From an uncultured delta proteobacterium (GTDB lineage: Bacteria; Myxococcota_A; Polyangia; Palsa-1104), in contig CAWAWS010000014.1 in the NCBI GenBank assembly GCA_963785725.1, positions 192,001 to 256,000 on the forward strand: a DNA stretch of 64,000 nt, read 5' to 3'. Of the stretch, positions 38 through 16,172 are shown piece after piece. Below the pieces are notes generated by a model that did no database searches, had not been told where the DNA came from, and saw only the letters and a program-made list of their open reading frames with translations. The position numbers and the translations under genes are program-made. Numbering within the stretch: the stretch's first letter is position 1; every line of letters begins with the position of its first letter.

Positions 38-1216
38 ATGGGCAAGGTGCACCTGAATGTCGGAACCATCGGCCACGTCGACCACGGCAAGACCACGCTC
101 ACCGCCGCGCTGACCAAAGTCATGGCGGCGCGTCACGGCGGTCGCGGGCTCGCGCTTCGACGAGATCGACCGCGCGCCCGAAGAGCGTGCGCGCGGCATC
201 ACGATCAACCTTGCTCACGTCGAGTACGAGTCGGCGACGCGGCACTACGCGCACGTCGATTGCCCGGGGCACGCCGATTACGTGAAGAACATGATCACCG
301 GCGCGTCGCAGATGGACGGCGCGATTCTGCTCGTCGACGGCTCGCAGGGCGCGCAGCATCAGACGCGCGAGCACGTGCTTGTTGGCCAGGCAGGTCGGCG
401 TGCAGCGGCTGGTCGTGTTCGTGAACAAGGTCGACGTGGCCGATCCCGAGCTGCTCGATCTGGTCGTGCTCGAGGTGCAGGAGCTGCTGGCGGCGCAGGG
501 TTACGTCGACGTCCCGATCGTGCGCGGCTCGGCGCTGCGGGCGCTGCAGGCCGTCGACGCCGGGCGCGCGAGCGACCCGTCGTGCGACTGCATCGTGCAG
601 CTGGTCGAGGCGCTCGATCGCCATCTGCCCGATCCCGAGCGCGACTTCGCGGCGCCGTTCTTGATGCCGATCGAGGACGTCGTGACCATCCCGGGTCGTG
701 GCACGGTCGTGACCGGCCGCGTGCAGCGCGGCGTGCTCGCCGTCGGTGCGCCGATCGAAGTGGTCGGGCTCGCCGACGGCGAGCGCCCGCGCACGGTCGT
801 GGTGAGCGGCATTCAGTCGTTTCACCGCGACTGTCCGGCAGGCGCGCGCCGGCGACAGCGTCGGCCTGCTCTTGCGCGGCGTCGGTCGCGACGAGGTCGT
901 GCGTGGTCAGGTCGTGACGCAGCCCGGGGTCGTCAAGCAGTTCGCGCATGGCGAGGCCGAGCTCTACGTGCTCGGGGCCAACGAAGGCGGGCGGCACACG
1001 CCGTTCGGCAGCGGTTACACGCCGCAGTTCTTCTTCGGCGCCACCGACGTCCCGGGCGCGCTCGACGTCGGCGAGGGCGCGCTCGTCCATCCGGGCGATC
1101 GCGCGCACGTGCGGTTCGCGCTGCGGCGGCCGGTCGGCATCGAGCCCGGCGTGCGCTTCGCGCTGCGTGAAGGCGGCCGCACGATCGGCGCCGGCATCAT
1201 CACCAAAGTCGGCTGA
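38..1216 (+). CDS. tuf: Elongation factor Tu, divergent stand-alone paralog (three apparent +1 frameshifts near 156, 378, 838)
   Basis: Joined frames give [80 protein letters not shown] before ATG 38. Confidence 0.93.
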
Positions 1217-1295: not shown

Positions 1296-2428
1296 TTACC
1301 AGGTGATCTTCTGGCTACCGCGCACGAAGCGCCATAACCCGACCAACGCTGCGAAGTTCAGCACTAAGAACGTGCGATAGACGACGCCGGCGCGACCCGC
1401 GCGCGTCCCGGCAGCGGCCATGAGCAGCAGAAACAGCTGACCCAACGCGAAGGCGCGCATGAGCCACACGCCGTCGAGCGCGAACGCGCCCATCGACCAC
1501 GGCTGCGCCGCCCACGCCGAGGCGACGAAGAACACGAGCAACAGCCACGGGCAGACCAAACGCATCACTTTATGCGACAGCAGCTCGAACCACGACGGAT
1601 TGACGAACGGCACGAGCAAGCGCCGGCATGCGCGCGAACAGCTGATAGTTGCCGGCCAGCGTGCGCACTTTGCGGCCGAACTCGCGCTCGTCGCCGAAGG
1701 CTTCGTCGAGCGCCACGGCCTCCTCGCAAAACAGCAGTCGCCGTCGCTGCAGGCGCAGCTGCATCGGGATCCACATGTCGTCGAGGATGACGTCGGTCGG
1801 CACGTGCGGTAAGTCGCTCTTGCGAATGACGTAGATCGGGCCGGTCACACCCAACATGCTGCGAAAGCGCGCTTCCGACTTACGAATCCAGTTCTCGTAC
1901 TTCCAATAGACGCCCGCGCCGGCGCTGCTCGGCAGCGTCAGGTTTCCGGAGACACAAGCGACATTCGGATCGGCGAGGCGCGTGACCATCGCCCTCAGTG
2001 CGGTCGGCGCCAAAGGCTGTCGAATGTCAGTCAGCAGTAGGACTTCGCCTTTGGCTTCGGCGCGCATGAGGTTCAGCGCCGTCGGCTTGCCGCTGCGCGC
2101 CGGCGCGCGAATGAGCCGCACGCGCCCGTCGCTGCGCGCGACATAGTCGCTCACGATCGCTTCGCTCTCGTCCGTCGATCCATCGGACAGGATCAAGATC
2201 TCCAGCTTGTCGGCCGGATAGTCGAGCGCCAATAGACTGTCGAGCTTGGGAGCGACATAGCGGGCGGCGTTGAACACCGGAATACAGACGGTTACGGTTG
2301 GTGACCAGCGCTCGTCCGGCTGCGTGCGCAGCGGCGACAGTCGCGCCAACAGGGCGACGACGATCGGATAAGCGACATAAGTATAAATCAGGAGACTGAA
2401 GGCGATCAGCGCGATCGCGGATCGCCAC
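1296..2428 (-). CDS. Glycosyltransferase family 2 (PgaC/IcaA/SypQ-like, membrane), frameshifted near 2419 and 1620
   Basis: PVFNAA, ILSDGSTD, GKPTALN, LLTDIRQ, YWKYE, ILDDM, EFGRKVRTLAGNYQ, C-terminal TM helices ending QKITW. Confidence 0.88.
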
Positions 2429-2431
2429 GGC

Positions 2432-3139
2432 TTAGCGCGGCGCCTTGACGAAGCGCGCCGGCACACCCATGGCGAGCGCGCCTTCGGGCACGTCATTGGT
2501 GACCACGCTGCCGGACGCGACGACGGCGCCGCGCCCGATGGTAACGCCTTTCATGACCTGCACGCCGCGCCCGAGCCAGACATAGTCGGACAAGGTCGTG
2601 GGCGCGATCTCCTCGACGCGCATGAGCTCGTCGCGCTCGCGCCGATCGGGATCCGACGGGTGACTGTCGGAGTCCGAGATGACACAACGCGCGGCGCAAC
2701 CGACATGACTGCCGATCTTGATGCGCTGATTGACGGAGAAGATGATGTCGCTCGAGAAATAGCAGTCGTCGCCGATGATCAGCTCGGGCTCGTCGACGAA
2801 GCGGCCGCTATCGACCTTGAAGTAGTTGAAGACACAATCGTCGCCGATCGTGATCTTCGTATGGCCGGTGATATAGGGCAGCGCATGAAAGCGCACGCGC
2901 TCGCCGAGCGAATGAATGCGCGCCCGCACCATCGGCTCGTAGAGCAGCTTGCCGGCGACGAGCTCGCGCCCGCCTTCGTAAGCGTCGTGCGCATAATAGA
3001 GCGTCTTATAGAACGCTTTGGTTATGTCAGTCTGCGGAACTTTCCAGCGCTCGAGCCAGCGATAGACATCATGCGCCGCTTTGGCGGCGGGATTGTCTTG
3101 TCGCTTGACCGACAGAACCAGCTTGTCGACGAGATTCAC
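2432..3139 (-). CDS. Left-handed beta-helix (hexapeptide repeat) acyltransferase, WcaF/Maa-like
   Basis: ITIGDDC, LIIGDDC, IKIGSHV, DSDSH, VWLGRGVQVMKGVTIGRGAVVASGSVVTNDVP..GVPARF. Confidence 0.9.
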   Translation of the reverse strand: MNLVDKLVLSVKRQDNPAAKAAHDVYRWLERWKVPQTDITKAFYKTLYYAHDAYEGGRELVAGKLLYEPMVRARIHSLGERVRFHALPYITGHTKITIGDDCVFNYFKVDSGRFVDEPELIIGDDCYFSSDIIFSVNQRIKIGSHVGCAARCVISDSDSHPSDPDRRERDELMRVEEIAPTTLSDYVWLGRGVQVMKGVTIGRGAVVASGSVVTNDVPEGALAMGVPARFVKAPR

Positions 3140-3154
3140 GGCCGGTGACCGACT

Positions 3155-4340
3155 TTAGGCCCAGACGTCGCCGCGCAGCGACTCGCGGCCAGCGTGCTTT
3201 GTCGAACCCATGCTGCGTAAACAGCGCCAGCACTAGGCGTTCGAGGCCCCAGGCCGCGCAGCCCGTCGACACCGGATTGCCGTCGCTGCCACCGATGTCG
3301 AACGTCTTGCCGAAGAAGTTCTCGTGCAGGTTCGCCGACGCGCAGGCGATGGTGCGCGCCGCGCCGTCCGCTCCCGGCTCGACGTTCAAGCGCATCTCGA
3401 ACTTCAAGTCGTTACGCACCTGCCAATAGGTCTTCGTGGCGTAAGCGGCGCTGAAGAACGGATCATTGGCGGTCTCGAAGACACAATCGAGGTCCCACTC
3501 TTTGACCTGTTGCAGCTGCGCTTCCATGCCCTTTTGTCTGTTCGTGGTGACAAAGGATTCGGTGCCGACGAAGATGATCTCGCGCATCGTGAAGTCCCAC
3601 GCGCGATCGAGACCGACGATGTTCTTCGACTCGTAGCGGAAGCAGCGGCCGACGGCGGTGACGCAGCGCCCTTCGGTCGTCATCTTCGTGTTCTCCATCG
3701 CCTGATAGCAATGGTAACAAACGGCCGGATTCAAGCAGACTTTGGGCGTCTCGAACGCCTTCCAATCGGGCACGTCCAAGTGCGTGCCGTGATCGTTGAC
3801 GCGGCGAAACTCGTCGATTTTGTCGTAATCCTCGACGAGGTGCACGACCATCGACACCGTGTGCGGGAAATACTTGAAGTAGTTGCAGCGCGCCAACACC
3901 TCCGACGGCATCAGCGCCGGATAGTTCTCGTCGACGGCGCCGAAGTCTTTGATACCCAATGTGCGGCACTGACTGTCGATGGCGCGCATGCACGCCAAAG
4001 CGGGACCGGCCAAGCCGACTTGACCGTGGCCTAATTCGAGCACCCAGCGCCGTTTCTTCAGCTCGCCATAGACGTCGTGTCCGTAAGCGCCTTTGTCGCT
4101 TCGCTTGTTCTCGGCGAAGATCTTCTTAGGCAACTTGCGAAAGCGCGAGACCATGGCGTCGACATAGCGCTCGACCTTGTCTTTGGCCTCGGGATCTTTG
4201 TCGTCGACCATGTCGACGTCGATGGCGTCACGCGCGGCATTGACGCGCACGCCGCGCACCGACGGACTGACATAGACCGACTGCTTCTCCAGGTCGGCGG
4301 CCAGATCTTCGTCGACCGCTTTCGGCAGCTGAATGTGCAT
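3155..4340 (-). CDS. Class II aaRS-like protein: amino acid:[carrier protein] ligase / methanogen-type SerRS homolog (likely frameshift near 3186)
   Basis: LNPAVCYHCY, motif 2 GRCFRYE..FTMREIIFVG, ANDPFF, ACASANLHENFFG, motif 3 STGCAAWGLERL; adjacent ACP gene. Confidence 0.85.
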
Positions 4341-4345
4341 TGGGC

Positions 4346-4591
4346 TTAGCCCCCTTGGAGCTGTCCGATGAGCTCCGTCATCTTGCGCACGGTACGGGCC
4401 GACGAATAGGCCTCGTCGGGAACGCTGACGCCGAACTCGTCCTCGAGCGCGAACAAGAGGTCGAGCGCGGCCGTCGATTCCACGCCCAGCTCGCGGAAGA
4501 TGTCGGCGTCGAGCGGGAGCGCGCCGTCCTCTTTCCGCTTGCTGACGCGGCGAATGATGTCGCAAATGCGCGTTTCGATGTTGTCAGTCAT
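4346..4591 (-). CDS. Acyl/aminoacyl carrier protein
   Basis: 81 aa acidic protein, DIFRELGVES*TAALDLLFALEDEFGVSVP (candidate phosphopantetheine Ser marked). Confidence 0.88.
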   Translation of the reverse strand: MTDNIETRICDIIRRVSKRKEDGALPLDADIFRELGVESTAALDLLFALEDEFGVSVPDEAYSSARTVRKMTELIGQLQGG

Positions 4592-4609
4592 GATGAGTAG
4601 TCGTCATTG

Positions 4610-5737
4610 TCAGTGGCGGCGTTGAATGCGTTCGTAAACGGCGAAGTAGTCGTCGACCATGCGCTGCGCGGAGTAGCGAGCGAGCGCGCGCCGACGACCC
4701 TCCTCGCCCCATGATACGCCGAGCGCCCGAGCGCTCGCAAGCTGCCACAATCGGCTACCCAACGCGGCCGCGTCGCCGCGCGGGACGAGCGCGCCGGTCG
4801 CCGCCGCCGCGCCGCCACTGCCGTCGACGACGACGGCCGGAATGCCGCCCACCGCCGTCGACACGACCGGCAGCGACGCCGCCATCGCCTCGACGATGAC
4901 CAAAGGTAAGCCCTCGGAGTCGCTGGAGAGCGCGAACACATCGAGCGCGTGCAGGAGCCGCGGCACGTCGCCGCGCGCGCCGAGCGGCAACACCCAACGC
5001 GCGCGCTCGCCCAGCGTCGCCAGCGCCGCATCCAGCGCCGGCTTTTCCGGGCCGTCGCCGACGATGACGAGCCGCAGCCGCTCCGACAAATGCGGCGCCA
5101 GCGCCTGCACCAGTAGCGGCTGATTCTTCTCGCGCACGAGCCGCCCGACGGTCCCGACGACGAACGCGTCCGCCGGCAAGCCCAGCTCCTCGCGCACCGT
5201 CGCCCGCAGCGTCGCCGACGGCGAAAATCGCGAGAGATCGATCCCGTTCTCGATCGTCGTCAGCTTGCGCAAGGCGACGTCGCCGTTGGCGCGCGCCTGC
5301 GCCGCCGTCGTCGCCGACACGGCCACGAACGCGTCACAACACAGCGCCGCCGCCCGCGCCAATAGTCGCCGCCGCCCCCGCATCTCGTTCGCGCCATGCT
5401 TCGTATGCACGCAGCGCGCGCCCGCCAGTCGCGCGGCCGGCGCGCCATAGATCAGCGGCGGCGGATTGTGCGTATGCACAATTTCGATCCGGCGCCGCCG
5501 CAGCGCCAGCGCCAGCTTGCCCACGAGCGTCACGTCGATCCCGCCCGCGCGCTTGCCGAGGCGCACGATGGGAATGCCGTGCGCCGCATATTCCGCCGCC
5601 ATCGGCCCGCCCGCCGGCTCCTCCAGTGACACGACGATGACCTCGGCGCCGCGCGCGCGCTGCCCCGCCGCCAGGTCGAGCGCCACTCGCTCGCCACCGC
5701 CGACCCCGAACGACCCGATCACATGCGCAATGCGCAT
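4610..5737 (-). CDS. Glycosyltransferase family 4 (GT-B)
   Basis: GGGERV, VHTH, ENGID, VGRLVREKN, SDSEGLPLVIVEAMA, VGGIP. Confidence 0.92.
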   Translation of the reverse strand: MRIAHVIGSFGVGGGERVALDLAAGQRARGAEVIVVSLEEPAGGPMAAEYAAHGIPIVRLGKRAGGIDVTLVGKLALALRRRRIEIVHTHNPPPLIYGAPAARLAGARCVHTKHGANEMRGRRRLLARAAALCCDAFVAVSATTAAQARANGDVALRKLTTIENGIDLSRFSPSATLRATVREELGLPADAFVVGTVGRLVREKNQPLLVQALAPHLSERLRLVIVGDGPEKPALDAALATLGERARWVLPLGARGDVPRLLHALDVFALSSDSEGLPLVIVEAMAASLPVVSTAVGGIPAVVVDGSGGAAAATGALVPRGDAAALGSRLWQLASARALGVSWGEEGRRRALARYSAQRMVDDYFAVYERIQRRH

Positions 5738-5750
5738 CGATCGCCCGACG

Positions 5751-6479
5751 CTACCGACCCAAACCCTTCAGCATGACCAGCGGCGTCTTGGCGATGATGT
5801 CCAGCTCCGTCGACAAGAACGTCGAGAAGCGCTCCAAATTCGCCGAGTAGGCCAGGTCGAACAGCATCTTCATGCGCATGTCGTCGGCCTCCGAATCGTC
5901 GGCGCCTTCGAGCTGAAATGGGTTGGTCAGCTGCTCCTTGAACTCGCTGATGGGGCTGCCGTTCGGCGCGCGCCCCGAATAGCCGAGCGAGATCTGCGCC
6001 AGCCCCGTGATCCCCGGCTTGACGTTGCGCATGCGCTCCTCGAAGAACGGGATCGCCAGCGCCAGATTCGACAGCAGCTCCGGTCGCTCCGGCCGCGGTC
6101 CGACCAGGCTCATGTCGCCGCGCAAGACGTTCCAGAACTGCGGCAGCTCATCCAGCCGCGTCTTGCGCAAGAAGCGACCCACGCGCGTGACCCGCGGATC
6201 GCCCTCTTTCGCGAGCACGGCGCCGGTATTTCTCTCCGCGTCCGGCCGCATCGTGCGGAACTTCAGCATGTGAAACTCGCGGAAGCGGAAGCCGGTCGTG
6301 CCGTTGCCGTCGGCGCCGAGCAGCTCACCGGCGCGCTTTTGCCGATAGAACAGCGGCCCCGGCGAGTCGAAATAAATGGCCGCGCCGATCAGCGGATAGA
6401 GCGGCACCGTCACCGCCAATCCCACGGCGCCCGCCGCCAGGTCCAGCAATCGCTTGGCGATTCTCACCGACGACGTCAC
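5751..6479 (-). CDS. Priming sugar (phosphoglycosyl) transferase, small Bac_transf type
   Basis: KRLLD, SPGPLFYRQKR, KFRTM, DPRVTRVGRFLRKTRLDELPQFWNVLRGDMSLVGPRPE, KPGITGLAQ. Confidence 0.93.
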   Translation of the reverse strand: MTSSVRIAKRLLDLAAGAVGLAVTVPLYPLIGAAIYFDSPGPLFYRQKRAGELLGADGNGTTGFRFREFHMLKFRTMRPDAERNTGAVLAKEGDPRVTRVGRFLRKTRLDELPQFWNVLRGDMSLVGPRPERPELLSNLALAIPFFEERMRNVKPGITGLAQISLGYSGRAPNGSPISEFKEQLTNPFQLEGADDSEADDMRMKMLFDLAYSANLERFSTFLSTELDIIAKTPLVMLKGLGR

Positions 6480-6523
6480 TGGCTTTTCACCCCCAACATG
6501 AACCGGCAGTGTATCATGTGGAC

Positions 6524-7012
6524 GTGATCCATCTCCGGGTCCCAGGCACCTTGCGCTACCGCGATCTGGCGGTGCGTGTCGTGGGCGCCGCGTGCAAGCT
6601 GGTCGGTAGCGCGGCCGGCGACTCCGGTCCGCTCCGCTTCAACAACGAGTTCGATCACCAGGTCGTCTCCGCGTTCGGTGAGGCTTTCAACAACGCCGCC
6701 ATCCACAGCTATCGGGGCGAGAGCGGCGATGTCGACATGGAGATCGACGTCGGTGAAGATCGCATCACCATTCACATGCGCGACTGGGGTCCCAGCTTTT
6801 TGCTCGATGACGTGCCCACGCCCGACCTGGATGCGCTGCCGGAGTCGGGGCTGGGGCTGTTCATCATTCGCTCTTTCATGGACGACGTGCAGTACCGTCC
6901 CGGCTCGCCAAACGTGCTCTCCATGACCAAACACCTCGATTCCGCGAGCCGGGCAGTAACCGATCCGGCCGATTCTCTCGATGACAGCGCTGGGGGCAAG
7001 AGTCGCCAATGA
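6524..7012 (+). CDS. RsbW/SpoIIAB-like anti-sigma serine kinase (HATPase_c)
   Basis: EAFNNAAIHSY, DWG, ESGLGLFIIRSFMDDVQY; start placed at GTG 6524, 6 nt after TATCAT. Confidence 0.85.
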   Translation: MIHLRVPGTLRYRDLAVRVVGAACKLVGSAAGDSGPLRFNNEFDHQVVSAFGEAFNNAAIHSYRGESGDVDMEIDVGEDRITIHMRDWGPSFLLDDVPTPDLDALPESGLGLFIIRSFMDDVQYRPGSPNVLSMTKHLDSASRAVTDPADSLDDSAGGKSRQ

Positions 7013-7308
7013 ACTTCAACAGGACGGATAGCGCGGACCTAACAGTTCTCCGCATTTCCGGCTCATTGGACGCCCTATCGACGCCCGAGCTGCGGCCCAT
7101 GATCGAAACGCTGGTGGCCGAGAAGCGAGCCGAGATCACGGTAGATCTCTCGGAATTACGCATAATTGACAGCTCGGGCGTGGGCGCGATTGTTTCGCTG
7201 TACAAACGAATGAGGGCAGTGGGGTCCAAGGTGGAGGTTGTAGGCCTCAAGGATCAGCCGCTCGCCATCTTTCGACTGCTTAGACTCGACCGAATTTTTA
7301 CGGTATAA
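7009..7308 (+). CDS. STAS-domain anti-anti-sigma (RsbV/SpoIIAA-like)
   Basis: SGSLD, VDLSELRIIDSSGVG with phospho-Ser motif; ATGA overlap with upstream gene. Confidence 0.9.
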   Translation: MNFNRTDSADLTVLRISGSLDALSTPELRPMIETLVAEKRAEITVDLSELRIIDSSGVGAIVSLYKRMRAVGSKVEVVGLKDQPLAIFRLLRLDRIFTV

Positions 7309-7343
7309 CCCTCATAGATTTCGTACGCCAGCTGGCGAAATAA

Positions 7344-8718
7344 ATGTCCGACACTCCTGAACCGCACGACCGACCAGCACCTGGCACGGATGCAGCAGAG
7401 TCCGCGGCGGGTGAATTGCGTGCGAATCTACGAGGGGCGGCATTGATGAACTCGGCTCTGAAGATCTCCAGCTCGTCTTCGACTTCGAATCGCTACGGCT
7501 CCGGCGAGTACCGCGACATGCACCGCCGGCTGGGCGCGCTCTCGCGCATCGCCAAGCGTCTGCCCGGTTTGACGAGCGAGCCCGAGCTGTTGGCCGAAGT
7601 CGTGGACTCGCTCTTGACCTATTTCGACACCGCCCGCTTCGTCGAGGTCTTCGTCGCCGATTCGGAGTGGCAGGAGTCGCGGCTCTATTGTCGTGAGCGC
7701 GGCGGCGACTTGCAGACGACCGATTGCGGCGGCATCGACGCGCTGCCCGAGGCCTATCGCGCCGACTTCTCGCTGCCGCGGCTCATCGCCAGCGACGGCG
7801 CGCGCGGCGCGATGATGTCGGCGCCGGTGCTCGAAGGCGTGACGCTGCTGGGCCTGTTGGTCGTCGAAGCGGTGCCCGGCAGCGCCGACTTCACCGACGG
7901 CGATCACGACGCGCTGGCCGGCGTCGCCGCGCAGGTGTCGATGGCGATTCAGCAGGTGCGCACCAAGCATCGTCGCTCGAAATCGAAGCAAATTCAACGT
8001 GATATGGAAGCGGCGCAGCGCATTCAGCGGAGCTTCCTGCCGCTGCTGGCGCCGTCGCTCAACGGCTTCCGCGTCGCCACCGAGTATCGGCCGGCGTTCG
8101 CCGTCGGCGGCGACTTCTACGACGTCATCACCACCGGTGCCGGCCAGCTCATGGGCGTCATCGGCGACGTCGCCGGCAAAGGTGTCGCCGGCGCGCTCAT
8201 GATGTCGCGGGTGTCGAGCGAGAATCCGCCGCTTGGTCGGCGCGCCCACGATTCAGCCGAGCGAAATCCTGAGCAAGCTCAACGACTCGTTCTCGGCGCT
8301 CGGCGTCGACGACAGCTTCATTACTGCCGCCGTCGTCAAGCTGGACCAGGAGTCGCGCCGCTTGACCGTCGCCAACGCCGGCCATGTGCTGCCGCTGGTG
8401 CGGCGCGCGTCGGGCGCGGTGTTGCCGCTCGGCCGCGCGTCCGGTCCGCCCGTCGGCATGCTGCCGAATCAGACCTACAGCGACGACGTGTTCCCGCTCG
8501 GCGTCGGCGACATCGTGCTGCTCATGACCGACGGCGTGCTCGACGCGCTCCATCGCGACGACGATCAGCTCGGGCTGTGGACGGTGATCGATCTGCTCGC
8601 CAACGCGCCGCGCGACCTGACCGAAATCAACAAGCGCATCGTCGCCCTCGTCGAAGAGCGCACCGGCGGCTCGCGCCCCGACGACCTGACCTTGCTCGGC
8701 CTCGAAGTCCTAGAGTAG
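7344..8718 (+). CDS. GAF + PP2C (SpoIIE/RsbU-like) phosphatase, frameshift near 8230
   Basis: AQRIQRSFLP, VGGDFYD, IGDVAGKG, ANAGHVLP, MTDGV, DDLT across two frames. Confidence 0.88.
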
Positions 8719-9869: not shown

Positions 9870-9959
9870 TGTAATCCAATTCTGTTTGGTGACCTTCGTA
9901 TCCTAAAATATTCAACGTTTGCGAGTAGATATGACGATTTGCGCGCCTATTTACCGGCT

Positions 9960-11066
9960 ATGGCTGCTGCAGTCTTGTTGCTGGTTGCGTTGGCGCTCAT
10001 CGGCTACGCCTACGTCGGCTATCCGGCGCTCGTCTTCTTGCGCGCGCGCTTCTCGCCGCGGCCGATCCGGCGGGCGCCGATTCGCCCGCACGTCACCGTC
10101 GTCATCGCGGCCTGGAACGAGGCGCGCAACATCTTGCACAAGCTGCAGGATCTGGCGCAGCAGTCGTATCCGCCCGAGCTGACCGAGGTCATCGTGGCCT
10201 GCGACGGCTCCAGCGACGGCACGCCGCTCATCGCCGAGCGCGCGCGGCCGCTTTGGGGTGAGCGGCTGCACGTCGTCAAGATCGCACAGCACTCGGGCAA
10301 GGCGACGGCGCTGAACGCGGCCATGCGGCGGGCGCGCGGCGAGATCGTCGTCTTTACCGACGCGCGCCAAGAGCTGACGCACAACGCGGTGGCGGCGCTG
10401 GTCGACAACTTCGCCGACGCCGAAGTGGGCGCGGTCGGTGGCGAGCTGGTGCTCGCGGGCGACGTGCCGGCGGGCGTGTACTGGAAATACGAGGCGGCGC
10501 TGCGCAAGTGGGAATCGGCGGCGGGCTCGACGATCGGCGTCTCGGGCGCGCTCTACGCCTTGCGCCGCGAGCTGTGGCAGCCGCTGCCGGAAGAGACGAT
10601 CTTGGACGACGTGCTGGTGCCGATGCGGGTGCGGCTGGCCGGCCGCCGCGTCGTGCTCGAGCCGCTGGCCAAGGCGTTCGACCTGGCCGGCGAGAGCTCG
10701 CGCGAGTTCATGCGCAAAGTACGCACGCTGTCGGGCAACTTCCAGCTGCTGGCGCTCGAGCCGCGGCTCCTGTCGCCGCTGGCCAATCCGTCGTGGTTCG
10801 GGCTCATGTCGCACAAGCTCATGCGCCTCGCGGTGCCGTACGCGATGTTGACGGCGCTCGTCGCCGCGGCGCTCTTGCCCGAGCCGTTCCGCGCGATCTT
10901 CTTGGGCGCGCAGCTGATCGCCTATGGCCTGGCGATGGCGCGCTGGCTCGGCGGCGGACAGGCGTCGCGGCTGGCCAAGCTGTGCGAGACCGTCGTCGTG
11001 CTCAACGCCGCGGCCGTCGTCGGTACCTTCCGCTTCTTGCGCTATGGCCGCCGCTTGCAGTGGTGA
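9960..11066 (+). CDS. Glycosyltransferase family 2, paralog of 1296-2428
   Basis: AAWNEA, CDGSSDGT, GKATALN, VFTDARQ, YWKYE, ILDDV, RKVRTLSGNFQ. Confidence 0.9.
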   Translation: MAAAVLLLVALALIGYAYVGYPALVFLRARFSPRPIRRAPIRPHVTVVIAAWNEARNILHKLQDLAQQSYPPELTEVIVACDGSSDGTPLIAERARPLWGERLHVVKIAQHSGKATALNAAMRRARGEIVVFTDARQELTHNAVAALVDNFADAEVGAVGGELVLAGDVPAGVYWKYEAALRKWESAAGSTIGVSGALYALRRELWQPLPEETILDDVLVPMRVRLAGRRVVLEPLAKAFDLAGESSREFMRKVRTLSGNFQLLALEPRLLSPLANPSWFGLMSHKLMRLAVPYAMLTALVAAALLPEPFRAIFLGAQLIAYGLAMARWLGGGQASRLAKLCETVVVLNAAAVVGTFRFLRYGRRLQW

Positions 11067-11104: not shown

Positions 11105-12152
11105 ATGTTGCGCGCCGTTCCCGATCGCCAGCTCGACGAGATTCTGTCGAAGGTTTCGCGATCGTTCTACTTGTCGCTGGCCATCTTGCCGCGCGCGATG
11201 CGGACGCAGCTGTCGGCGGCCTATCTCGTCGCGCGCGCGGCCGACACCATCGCCGACACGCGGCTCGTCAAACCCGCGCGGCGCATCGAGCTGCTCGACG
11301 GCATGCGCAAGACGCTGAGCGATCCGGCGCGCATCGCCGATTACGCGCGTGACGTCGGCGGCGAGCTGGTCGCGCCCGACGCCGCCGCCGACGACACCAG
11401 CGCCGCCGAGCGCCTCTTGTTGACGCGCTTGAGCGACTGCCTGACGCGCTTGTCGTCGTTCGCCGACGCCGACCGCGAGCGCGCCCGCAAAGTCATCGAC
11501 CTGCTCATCACCGGCATGGAGCGCGACCTCCAGCGCTTCGCCGATAGCAACCATTTGGTTGCGCTAGAGACGATGGCCGATCTCGACGAGTACACCTATC
11601 TCGCGGCCGGCTGCGTCGGCGAGTATTGGACGGTCATGACGGCGGCGCACGTGCCGACGGTGCGACGGCTTGGCGCGGCCCGACTTCGTGGCGCGCGGCG
11701 TGCGGCTCGGCAAGGCGCTGCAGCTGGTCAACGTCATCCGCGACGCGCCCGCCGATCTGTTGGCCGGGCGCTGCTACATTCCGCGCGAGCTGCTACAGCG
11801 ACACGGGCTCACGCCGGAAGATCTGCTGCACCCGCAGGCGCGGCGGCGGGCGAAGCCGGTGCTCGATGAGCTGCGCCGCTTGGCGTTGGCGCACGTCGAC
11901 GCGGCGTTTCCCTATGTGATGGCGGTGCCGCGTCGCGAGCCGCGCTTGCGGTTGGCGGCGCTGTGGCCGCTGTGGATCGGGCTCGGCACGCTGCACAAGA
12001 TCGCCATCGCCGACGATCCGCTCGATCCGGCGCGGCCGATCAAGATCAGCCGCAACGACGTCTATCGCATCATCGCCGAGTCGTCGTTGGTGGTGAGCGT
12101 CGACAGCGCGCTCGCGGCGCTGCAGCAGCGGCGGCGGCGGCAGGCCGAATGA
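11105..12152 (+). CDS. Squalene/phytoene synthase family protein, frameshift near 11670
   Basis: KVSRSF, YLVARAADTIAD, DEYTYLAAGCVG, GKALQLVNVIRD..DL..GRCYIP. Confidence 0.87.
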
Positions 12153-13851: not shown

Positions 13852-14904
13852 TTACCCCGGCAGGCGGCCGACGTAGCGCGACGACGGGCGAATCAGCCGG
13901 CCGTGGGCGCGCTGCTCGGCGACGTGCGCGCACCAGCCGGCGCTGCGCGCGACCGCGAACGTCGGCGAGAAGAGCGGCCGCGGCAGCCCGACGGCGTCGA
14001 GGAGCACGGCCGTGTAGAACTCGACGTTGGCTTTGAGCGCGCGATCGGGATGGCGGCGCGCCAGCGCGCCCTCGGCCGCGGCTTCCACCGCGCGCGCCAG
14101 CGCCAGCCGCGGCGTCCGCACGCCCGCTGCCTCCAGTCGCTCCAGCGCCCGCTCCAGCACCGCCGCGCGCGGATCGCGTACGCGATAAATGCGGTGCCCC
14201 ATGCCCATCAAGCGCCGGCCGGCGGCGAGCTCGGCCTCGAGCCAGGCCGTGGCGCGCGCCGGCTCGGCGATGGCGTCGAGCATGTCGAGCACCGGGCCGG
14301 GCGCGCCGCCATGCAGCGGACCTTTGAGCGCGCCGATGGCGGCCGTCAACGCCGACACCAGGTCCGAGCCGGTCGAGGCCACGACCCGCGCCGTGAACGT
14401 CGAGGCGTTCATGCCGTGATCGATGACGGTGACGAGGTAGGCGTCGAGCGCGCGTGCTGCCGCCGCCGGCGCGTGGCCGGTCACCATGCGCAGATAGTCG
14501 GCGGCGTGATCGAGCGTGGCATCGGGCGGCGTGGGCGCGGCGCCGGCGCGTCGTCGCGACCAGGCCGCCGCCAGCGTCGCGAAGGCGCCGACGAGCTCGA
14601 GCGGCGGCGCGCTCGGCGGCAAGTGCGCGACGGCCGCGCGCAGCGCGTCCATGCCGTCGGCGGCGTCGAGCGCGTCGCCGATGCGCGCCAGCCGATCGAA
14701 CCCGAGCATGCGACCGCGCGCCAACGCCGCCGTCGCGTCGCTCGCCGACCCGCCGACCATGAGCGCGGCCGCATCGGCGAAGCGCGCCGACTCCGCCAGC
14801 GCTTCCACGTCGTGGCCGGCCAGGATCAGCCGGCCGCGCTCGCCGTCGACGTCGGACAGCCGCGTCTCGGCGGCGATTACACCCTCGAGCCCGTTGGTCA
14901 TCAT
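13852..14904 (-). CDS. Citrate synthase family protein
   Basis: GLEGV, DHGMNASTF, GPLHGGA, GMGHRIY..DPRA, NVEFY, R..GWCAH. Confidence 0.92.
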   Translation of the reverse strand: MMTNGLEGVIAAETRLSDVDGERGRLILAGHDVEALAESARFADAAALMVGGSASDATAALARGRMLGFDRLARIGDALDAADGMDALRAAVAHLPPSAPPLELVGAFATLAAAWSRRRAGAAPTPPDATLDHAADYLRMVTGHAPAAAARALDAYLVTVIDHGMNASTFTARVVASTGSDLVSALTAAIGALKGPLHGGAPGPVLDMLDAIAEPARATAWLEAELAAGRRLMGMGHRIYRVRDPRAAVLERALERLEAAGVRTPRLALARAVEAAAEGALARRHPDRALKANVEFYTAVLLDAVGLPRPLFSPTFAVARSAGWCAHVAEQRAHGRLIRPSSRYVGRLPG

Positions 14905-14921
14905 GCTGCTACCATGCGTTC

Positions 14922-16172
14922 GTGACCCAGGTTGATCAACGTGGATTCGACAATCAACCAGCGTGGCTCACGGCCGAGCAGGCAGCGCGTACGCTCGACG
15001 TGAAGCTGAAGACGCTCTACGCCTACGTCAGCCGCGGGCTCATTCGGCGCATGCAGGATCCCGACGGCAAGAAGCGTTACGCGCGCGACGACGTGGCGCG
15101 GCTGCGCGCTCGTCATGACGCGCGCTCCGGTCACGGCGCCGTCGCCGCCGGCGCGCTGCGTTGGGGTGAGCCGGTATTGGCGACGGCGATCAGCGCCATC
15201 GCGCCCGACGGCCCGCGCTATCGCGGCCAGCCGGCGCTGCGCCTGGCCGCCGAAGGCGCGCCCTTCGAGTCGGTGGCCGAGCTGTTGTGGACGGGCGCGA
15301 TGCTGCCGCTGCGTCCGGCGTGGCCGGCGTCGCTGCCCTTGCCGCGCGCCAAGCTGCAGGCGCTGTTGCCGAAGCGGGCGTCGCCGTTCTTGGTCCTGCA
15401 GCTGACCGTCGTCGCGTTGGCCGCGGCCGATCCGGCGCCGTTTCCGGCCGTGCTCGCGCAGGAGCTCGACCGCGCGCGGGCGCTCGTGCGCACGCTGGCG
15501 GCGGCGGCGGCGCTCGCCTTCGACGGCAAGCGCCACGAAGCCGCGGCGCGCGCGTCGTCGCTGGCCGAGACGGCGACGATCGCGCTCGGCGGTGACGGCG
15601 CGCGGCGCACGGTCGCGGCCGTCGAAGAGGCGCTCGTGCTCTCGGCCGATCACGAGCTCAACGTCTCCAGCTTCGCCGCGCGCGTGGCGGCGTCGACGGG
15701 CGCCGACCTGTACGCCTGTTTGACGTCCGCGCTGGCGACGATGAGCGGCCCGTTGCATGGCGGCGAGTCCGACCGCTTCGCCGCGTTCGTCGCCGAGGCG
15801 GGCACGCCGGCGCGCGCCGCTGCCGTCGTCGCAGCGCGGGCGCGCCGCGGCGATCGCTTTCCCGGCTTCGGCCACCGCCTCTATCCTGCTGCCGATCCGC
15901 GCGGCGCCCGCCTGCTCGCGCTCGCGCGACGCATCGCTCCACGCAGCCTGCGCACGATCGACGCCGTCATCGACGCCGTCGCCGCCAGCGGTGGCGAGCC
16001 GCCGTCGCTCGACGCCGGGCTGCACGCGCTCACCGTCGCGCTCGATCTGGCGCCCGGCGCCGGCGCCGCGCTCTTCGCGCTCGGTCGCACGGCGGGCTGG
16101 GTCGCGCACGTGCTCGAACAGCGCGCCGAGCCGTCGCTGCTGCGGCCGCGCGCTCGTTACGTCGGTGTGTGA
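14922..16172 (+). CDS. Helix-turn-helix + citrate synthase-like fusion protein
   Basis: N-terminal WLTAEQAARTLDVKLKTLYAYVSRG; C-terminal ADHELN, GPLHGG, GFGHRLY, GRTAGWVAH. Confidence 0.88.
   Translation: MTQVDQRGFDNQPAWLTAEQAARTLDVKLKTLYAYVSRGLIRRMQDPDGKKRYARDDVARLRARHDARSGHGAVAAGALRWGEPVLATAISAIAPDGPRYRGQPALRLAAEGAPFESVAELLWTGAMLPLRPAWPASLPLPRAKLQALLPKRASPFLVLQLTVVALAAADPAPFPAVLAQELDRARALVRTLAAAAALAFDGKRHEAAARASSLAETATIALGGDGARRTVAAVEEALVLSADHELNVSSFAARVAASTGADLYACLTSALATMSGPLHGGESDRFAAFVAEAGTPARAAAVVAARARRGDRFPGFGHRLYPAADPRGARLLALARRIAPRSLRTIDAVIDAVAASGGEPPSLDAGLHALTVALDLAPGAGAALFALGRTAGWVAHVLEQRAEPSLLRPRARYVGV
14930..14959. promoter_or_regulatory. Putative operator GGTTGAT-N16-ATCAACC at the citrate synthase divergon
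   Basis: Inverted repeat containing the perfect palindrome GTTGATCAAC (14931-14940). Confidence 0.5.

Follow-up and report, generated by a model that had tools for sequence, protein, structure and literature searches.

A six-gene operon on the minus strand, near the start of a 64,000-nucleotide stretch of DNA (the window: positions 192,001 to 256,000 of contig CAWAWS010000014.1, assembly GCA_963785725.1) from an uncultured delta proteobacterium of the class Polyangia, combines glycosyltransferase genes with genes for an acyl carrier protein (ACP), a ligase related to class II aminoacyl-tRNA synthetases and a left-handed beta-helix (LbH) acyltransferase. This locus very probably represents a conserved carrier-based module for the delivery of an amino acid to polysaccharide. 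An earlier note, made from the sequence alone, had described six tightly packed genes with gaps of about 3-18 nt, and all six were found where it had placed them; the gaps along the operon are 13, 18, 5 and 15 nt, and then 3 nt ahead of the GT2 start (2428). The operon and the genes diverging from it are as follows:

5751..6479, minus strand: priming phosphoglycosyl transferase (PGT), which starts the lipid-linked repeat unit; PF02397, 172 bits
4610..5737, minus strand: GT4 glycosyltransferase; best model TIGR03088 (PEP-CTERM/XrtA type), under its cut-off
4346..4591, minus strand: dedicated carrier protein (ACP); PF00550, 43 bits; predicted phosphopantetheine site Ser39
4340 to about 3155, minus strand: predicted long-type class II amino acid:carrier protein ligase, about 394 aa; zinc-ligand residues C208, E254 and C361; N-terminal domain 1-66
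2432..3139, minus strand: LbH (hexapeptide) acyltransferase, the proposed aminoacyl transferase; PF00132; conserved N-terminal extension of about 70 aa; His160 and Trp188
1296..2428, minus strand: GT2 glycosyltransferase, a single gene; PF00535
6509..7308, plus strand: anti-sigma kinase-like (HATPase_c_2) and STAS genes, divergent from the operon and found beside the priming transferase in relatives too

In the assembled sequence, the ligase frame reads through its natural stop and the GT2 gene is broken in two. Contigs of close relatives, taken from four soil runs of three studies, have one base fewer at position 3185 (three of four runs), at position 2422 or 2423 (three of four) and at position 1618 (four of four). 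The 15 closest full-length database ligases are all 394 aa long, with a C-terminus that corresponds to the window's other frame, and both GT2 pieces are 62-74% identical to an intact 376-aa relative. Since the relatives' contigs lack the extra bases and the closest ligases have 394 aa, the three frameshifts (one in the ligase, two in GT2) are most probably assembly indels and not signs of decay.

Wzx, Wza and Wzy are encoded on the same contig, 8.5-12 kb before the window, together with another GT2, a GT4-like gene and a UDP-GlcNAc 2-epimerase. The operon contains no DltA-like gene and no MBOAT, as the earlier note had correctly stated, nor any other adenylation-domain loader; the MBOAT matches of this genome lie on other contigs. 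A promoter and terminator scan of the locus yielded one promoter-like site, against 0.8 expected, and nothing useful.

The ligase and its carrier protein

All the ligase motifs pointed out in the earlier note were recovered, namely C208 (PAVC), E254 (FTMRE), C361 (STGC), ANDPFF at 291-296, R235 of motif 2 and R368 of motif 3. The best solved relatives are Bll0957 (PDB 3mey, E 7e-29) and type 2 seryl-tRNA synthetase (SerRS). C208, E254 and C361 correspond in the alignment to a Cys, a Glu and a Cys of Bll0957, which we take to be its zinc ligands C131, E176 and C279 (allowing for a 20-residue tag offset). Of 169 ligases, 169, 162 and 165, respectively, retain these residues; R235 and R368 are conserved as well. 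The structural model of the ligase (pLDDT 83.7) had M. kandleri SerRS as its top match (Z 31.2, rmsd 2.8, 316 aligned), and also matched Bll0957 (Z 29.8, rmsd 2.8, 289 aligned).

With Bll0957/Atu2573 (PDB 3mey, 4h2s, 4h2w; PRK07080), the window ligase shares the class II core derived from type 2 SerRS, the Cys-Glu-Cys zinc site and a neighbouring carrier with a non-DS serine motif, but it is about 90 aa longer at the N-terminus and does not reach the PRK07080 cut-off (160 bits against 357). Scores with this model were 129-177 bits for the long-type relatives and 401-413 for the classic short ligases of those relatives. With type 2 SerRS (PDB 3w3s, 2cj9) it has the catalytic fold and the zinc site in common, but most of the N-terminal tRNA-binding region is unmatched and the score is far under the cut-off (115 bits against 611), the match starting only at ligase residue 52-53 and leaving about the first 156-161 of the 518 profile positions uncovered. 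The profile search and phylogeny suggested in the earlier note thus left the ligase below the cut-offs of both families and, in a tree that contained no SerRS, on a branch separate from the classic ligases; this tree (FastTree, 79 sampled rows, with long-branch warnings) lacks an outgroup, and the order of events cannot be read from it. The extra N-terminal part includes a small domain (residues 1-66), modelled as beta-alpha-beta-beta-alpha, that was present in 146 of 159 long-type rows versus none of 10 classic rows; as to a possible origin of this domain as a remnant of the type 2 SerRS domain, one of the SerRS rows in the structural comparison aligned from residue 40, with an rmsd of 5.2. 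Judged by its sequence, the ligase represents a separate "long" type that is related to the Bll0957 family but falls inside neither curated family.

The window's genome encodes one copy of this ligase, two phosphopantetheinyl transferases (PPTases) and a canonical SerRS above cut-off (490 bits). The long type is patchily distributed: within the class it was detected at E 1e-50 in 37 of 401 genomes, and within the phylum at E 1e-60 in 6 of 401; the 37 include the unpublished G667, which is nowhere the sole basis of a claim. In family f80 (L302:9065-10240, L303:9178-10380), 10 of 14 genomes carry long-type ligases. A 638-aa database protein (P0086) with the appearance of a ligase-LbH fusion was dismissed as a frameshift artefact, its middle being out of frame.

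The N-terminal extension could also belong to a second methanogen-type seryl-tRNA synthetase, or to another tRNA-dependent enzyme, whose short N-terminal domain would bind tRNA. The approximately 90 residues before the core that are missing from Bll0957, and the SerRS profile match from residue 52-53, are consistent with such a role, as is the existence of solo relatives without an ACP. Nevertheless, this explanation appears very improbable in view of the low SerRS score, of the 394-aa length against a 518-position profile whose N-terminal part is unmatched, and of the canonical SerRS found here and in all five tested f80 genomes with solo ligases. Furthermore, 119 of 126 loci have an ACP beside the ligase, for which, as described below, an adenylation enzyme can stand in. 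This comparative evidence (ACP linkage, loader swap and canonical SerRS) supports the proposal of the earlier note that the ligase would serve the ACP rather than a tRNA.

The carrier has its Ser39 in an ES, not DS, context, and this serine is invariant in 25 of 25 aligned carriers. Ligase neighbourhoods were surveyed in the best 80 of 191 GTDB loci and the best 80 of at least 506 metagenome loci, with profiles built from these same loci. When loci with at least 400 nt on both flanks were considered and shorter ones dropped, an ACP adjoined the ligase in 70 of 74 GTDB and 49 of 52 metagenome loci. Of the long loci, those with 3 kb to either side of the ligase, 45 of 56 from GTDB and 11 of 22 from metagenomes showed a glycan gene, with profiles that do not cover all glycan families. 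Thus, the linkage of ligase-ACP pairs to glycan loci in other genomes, on which the earlier note had staked its reading, was borne out by the survey.

The enzyme that accompanies ligase and carrier differs between lineages. It is an LbH in Polyangia; a distant clade also has an LbH, in reversed gene order and frequently accompanied by an NMT-like double GNAT; Anaerolineae have a GNAT, an AAC(3)-like protein and DUF4910 beside NeuB and a capsule gene, and some Alphaproteobacteria and Kofleriaceae an MBOAT with a possible SGNH protein. The 56 long loci from GTDB comprised 6 with LbH, 5 with MBOAT, 38 with AAC(3)-like and 7 with none of them, and the 22 from metagenomes 6, 4, 0 and 12, respectively. 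Two of these enzymes were never found together, as expected if they fill a single transferase slot. In the ligase tree, the alphaproteobacterial ligases that are linked to an MBOAT fall together with the window's clade (support 99). Within the close clade, LbH adjoins the ligase in 9 of 17 GTDB and 17 of 30 metagenome loci. Five GTDB genomes without an adjoining LbH were searched whole (L033, L040 and L042 were left out), and all five had an orthologue (E about 1e-100) on the same contig, 10-15 kb off.

Some loci depart from this pattern. In three genomes of the window's genus (G003, G004 and G001; loci L025, L026 and L023), polysaccharide loci contain, instead of the long type, a classic short-ligase operon with acyl-CoA dehydrogenase, ligase, DUF1839, PPTase, ACP and GH2 genes. 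The window has no acyl-CoA dehydrogenase, DUF1839, PPTase or GH2 gene in its operon, and has the LbH instead. In G004, the classic operon is followed by a squalene/phytoene synthase-like gene, the same as the one after the window's locus at 11105; short and long ligases may be interchangeable at one locus. Two tandem long-type ligases lie in a cluster resembling those of nonribosomal peptide synthetases (NRPS), with acyl-CoA dehydrogenase, radical SAM and AMP-binding genes (L086:7992-10600), a possible non-glycan use of the family. Locus L196 brings together an FkbH domain protein, a second carrier, three LbH genes, an NMT-like GNAT and the ligase, which suggests two carrier-borne acyl groups. 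Finally, LbH and ACP genes occur with pyridoxal phosphate-dependent decarboxylase, asparagine-synthetase-like and NadE-like genes in L251:6429-8990, L293:3285-8121 and L297:4509-10130, in sets resembling the exosortase-associated TIGR03098/TIGR03099, below the cut-offs of these models.

Probable exchange of the loading enzyme and the predicted amino acid

LbH orthologues at E 1e-60 were found in 16 of 401 genomes of the class, and 7 of the 16 also have the long ligase. Among the other nine, six (G409, G364, G473, G511, G556 and G649) have an ACP directly before the LbH, and a search at E 1e-5 detected no ligase in any of the six. In the four of them compared with the window, the ACPs are 35-47% and the LbHs 35-50% identical. 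All six encode one orthologous stand-alone NRPS-type adenylation enzyme, which adjoins ACP-LbH in G473, G511, G556 and G649 and lies elsewhere, 50-51% identical, in G409 and G364. Three copies scanned whole scored 333-344 bits with TIGR01733 (cut-off 317); the G649 copy has one internal stop. No orthologue of this enzyme was found in the window's genome or in 21 ligase-bearing genomes, where the best match was at most 36%, and the best match in 41 near relatives was at most 37%, the level of ordinary NRPS domains. In G703, a different AMP-forming ligase occurs together with ACP and LbH, and in G125 and G530 neither carrier nor loader was seen beside the LbH orthologue.

In G409, a single-contig genome with 98% completeness, ACP and LbH form a bare two-gene locus away from any glycan gene. 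An LbH tree built by quick search places the LbHs of G409 and G364 inside the clade that also holds the window's LbH (support 99), and the adenylation label requires at least three changes. In the simplest reading, the ligase and the adenylation enzyme would do the same job, loading the ACP, and the client of the ACP would be the LbH. Since two unrelated loaders seem to serve one ACP-LbH pair, these data support the ligase-ACP-LbH model put forward in the earlier note.

Both loaders give hints about the amino acid. The specificity codes of the adenylation enzymes (DILSIGLIYK in G364, DILSVGIIYK in G409, and also DIMAIGLIYK and DITSVGHIYK) keep the alpha-amino-binding Asp and come close to the glycine code, DILQLGLIWK. 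Among single PDB domains, they match best the second adenylation domain of linear gramicidin synthetase A (E 8e-85), which we assume to be glycine-taking. Ala363 of the window ligase occupies the position of Ala281 in Bll0957, a glycine ligase; close relatives have Ala in 28 of 49 cases and Gly in 18 of 49, and Gly at this position presumably admits alanine (the A281G rule, which our literature search did not turn up). Glycine is our best guess for the loaded amino acid, alanine or serine being possible.

The hexapeptide acyltransferase and its possible roles

We lean towards a carrier-protein route that would aminoacylate a Wzx/Wzy-type surface polysaccharide. Ser39 of the ACP would be primed by a PPTase encoded elsewhere, for which the genome offers two candidates. 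The zinc-dependent ligase would then use ATP to activate a small amino acid (glycine being the most likely one) and form aminoacyl-S-ACP, a step made highly likely by its homology to Bll0957, its intact active site and the gene linkage. A cytoplasmic LbH trimer would take over the aminoacyl group from the ACP and attach it, at a hydroxyl or amine, either to a nucleotide sugar or to a lipid-linked repeat that the priming transferase, GT4 and GT2 assemble; this transfer, for which gene context is the guide, seems fairly probable. Wzx, Wzy and Wza, whose genes are present, would export and polymerise the repeat. The amino acid on the surface glycoconjugate is likewise putative and deduced from gene context. 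Aminoacyl transfer by the LbH is favoured because this enzyme stands in the slot taken elsewhere by MBOAT or AAC(3)-like proteins, because one clade has a separate NMT-like GNAT, and because G409 has the bare ACP-LbH pair.

The earlier note had likened the LbH to LpxA and LpxD, a kinship that was not found. Its top matches and nearest solved relatives are maltose, galactoside and polysialic-acid O-acetyltransferases, all of the acetyl-CoA class, and neither LpxA nor LpxD appeared among 30 solved-structure matches at E 1e-12. The window LbH shares with these O-acetyltransferases the hexapeptide beta-helix and a His and a Trp at acetyltransferase positions: His160, found in at least 90% of 28 LbH rows, and Trp188, found in all of them, align with the HP and VWIG segments of the maltose/galactoside class. 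It is nearer to the acetyl-CoA group than to LpxA/LpxD and has the extra N-terminal region of about 70 aa. All NCBIfam models scored far under their cut-offs (best, 62 of 243 bits), and an Atlas search returned only hexapeptide clusters. Assignment as a Vat/CatB resistance enzyme was rejected, the matches being weak and far under cut-off.

The acetyl-CoA class of the LbH would fit a scheme in which the ligase loads glycine onto the ACP, the LbH uses acetyl-CoA to N-acetylate the carrier-bound amino acid, and another enzyme attaches N-acetyl-glycine to the glycan. Such a scheme also accounts for ACP and LbH staying together across loader swaps, and GNAT (Acetyltransf_6) or Acyl_transf_3 genes do follow the LbH in several relatives. 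Nevertheless, we regard it as unlikely, though worth keeping in mind, since the distant clade has both the LbH and the NMT-like double GNAT, the latter being the more natural N-acylating enzyme, and since no other transferase is conserved beside ACP-LbH, the G409 locus consisting of those two genes only.

Alternatively, the LbH might be an ordinary polysaccharide O-acetyltransferase inherited with the locus, and aminoacyl-ACP might feed a lipid, a small molecule or a protein through an enzyme encoded elsewhere. The O-acetyltransferase-like sequence agrees with this, as do the 10-15 kb between ligase and LbH in five genomes, the homologous LbHs in polysaccharide loci without a carrier (G125 and G390) and the ligase pair in the NRPS-like cluster of L086. 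However, the ACP-LbH pair stands away from glycan genes in G409 and beside the adenylation enzyme in four genomes, and for 13 of the 16 orthologues found across the class an ACP gene lies no more than about 1.3 kb from the LbH, which makes this explanation rather unlikely.

Besides the acetyl-CoA kinship of the LbH and the missing LpxA/LpxD matches, several observations weigh against the carrier-protein route that we favour. Related LbHs occur with no carrier seen nearby in G125, G530, G390 and G368, and also in the window's own genome, where a 31% identical paralogue (G000:C16:182479-183153, L258) has the same N-terminal extension and no carrier nearby; the extension is therefore not a carrier-specific mark. 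Some long ligases (L131, L132) have no adjacent ACP, and neither do the two f80 solo ligases examined (G452, and G489, where the gene comes after rpoD). By the profiles used, 11 of 56 GTDB and 11 of 22 metagenome long loci contain no glycan gene. Three of the six swap genomes belong to one genus, leaving about three or four independent cases, and G473 is 83% complete. The Ala/Gly variation at ligase position 363 implies that the loaded amino acid may vary. Proteins similar to the L258 paralogue were found in all four same-genus genomes.

Relation to known systems and neighbouring genes

In Gram-positive bacteria, DltABCD places D-alanine on a surface glycoconjugate by a tRNA-free route of loader, carrier and transferase. 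In Vibrio cholerae, the loader, carrier and transferase of AlmEFG are described as putting glycine on a surface glycoconjugate, also without tRNA (PMC4278540). The logic proposed for the window is the same, but the loaders of both systems are adenylation-domain enzymes and their transferases an MBOAT or a lipid A acyltransferase, whereas the window has a synthetase-like loader that can be swapped with an adenylation enzyme, an LbH in the transferase position and, as proposed acceptor, a Wzx/Wzy polysaccharide. By analogy, the module would work like Dlt or AlmEFG yet belong to neither. The earlier note had set it apart as a Dlt-like route without DltA or MBOAT; both are indeed missing from the operon, but the contrast is blurred by relatives that load by an adenylation enzyme and by a sister ligase clade that pairs with MBOAT. 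More broadly, tRNA-independent glycan aminoacylation might be modular across several phyla, with loading done either by a synthetase-derived zinc ligase or by an adenylation enzyme of NRPS type and final transfer by LbH, MBOAT or AAC(3)-like proteins, the window holding the LbH form; this wider scheme is about as likely as not.

To our knowledge, no LbH has been shown to use an aminoacyl-carrier donor. The LbH fold can use acyl-ACP, as described for LpxA/LpxD (PMC6286764), and SbzI, a carrier-protein-dependent GNAT of an antibiotic pathway, is reported as a normally CoA-using fold that has adopted a carrier-tethered donor (PMC11685415), a precedent whose fold differs from that of the window LbH.

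Amino acid:carrier protein ligases load Gly or Ala on phosphopantetheine, and a 2022 review calls their biological role unknown (PMC9437257; also PMC5370406). A note in proof of 2010 predicted, as the function of the classic operon, the ligation via Atu2574 of an amino acid to an amine on a sugar of the cell surface (PMC2922099). Thus, the general idea is already in print for the short family, and what seems to be new here is the LbH version of the module and the loader swap. In the literature searched, which included few subscription journals, no ligase-ACP-LbH or adenylation-ACP-LbH glycan module and no loader swap was found; the neighbourhood files linked to PMC2922099 may list such loci.

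For the role of these ligases, the locus offers a testable hypothesis of three proteins, soluble and reconstitutable. If it is true, the LbH would be the first hexapeptide enzyme moving glycine from a carrier protein to a sugar, which would directly answer what these ligases are for, add a donor type to LbH enzymes and provide a route for amino groups on myxobacterial polysaccharides. The repeated swap between a class II synthetase fold and an NRPS-type adenylation enzyme on one carrier-acyltransferase pair would be a natural experiment that connects amino acid activation of the ribosomal type with the non-ribosomal one. For M. xanthus, glycine is reported to be a possible component of the spore polysaccharide (PMC12288465; bioRxiv 10.64898/2026.09.26.754727).

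Several further genes flank the operon. Between it and the Wzx/Wza/Wzy block there is an EF-Tu-like gene (38-1216, plus strand), identified by eye and broken by frameshifts into several pieces; the breaks may be assembly errors. On the other side, the plus strand carries the anti-sigma kinase-like and STAS genes, a frameshifted GAF/SpoIIE-type phosphatase and a second GT2 (6509-8718 and 9919-11066); the divergent kinase-like and STAS genes, which many relatives keep next to the priming transferase, may be regulators acting through partner switching, outside the transfer chemistry. Further along, two divergent citrate synthase-like genes were detected (13852-16172), the first by PF00285 (328 bits) and the second, which has an N-terminal extension, by eye.

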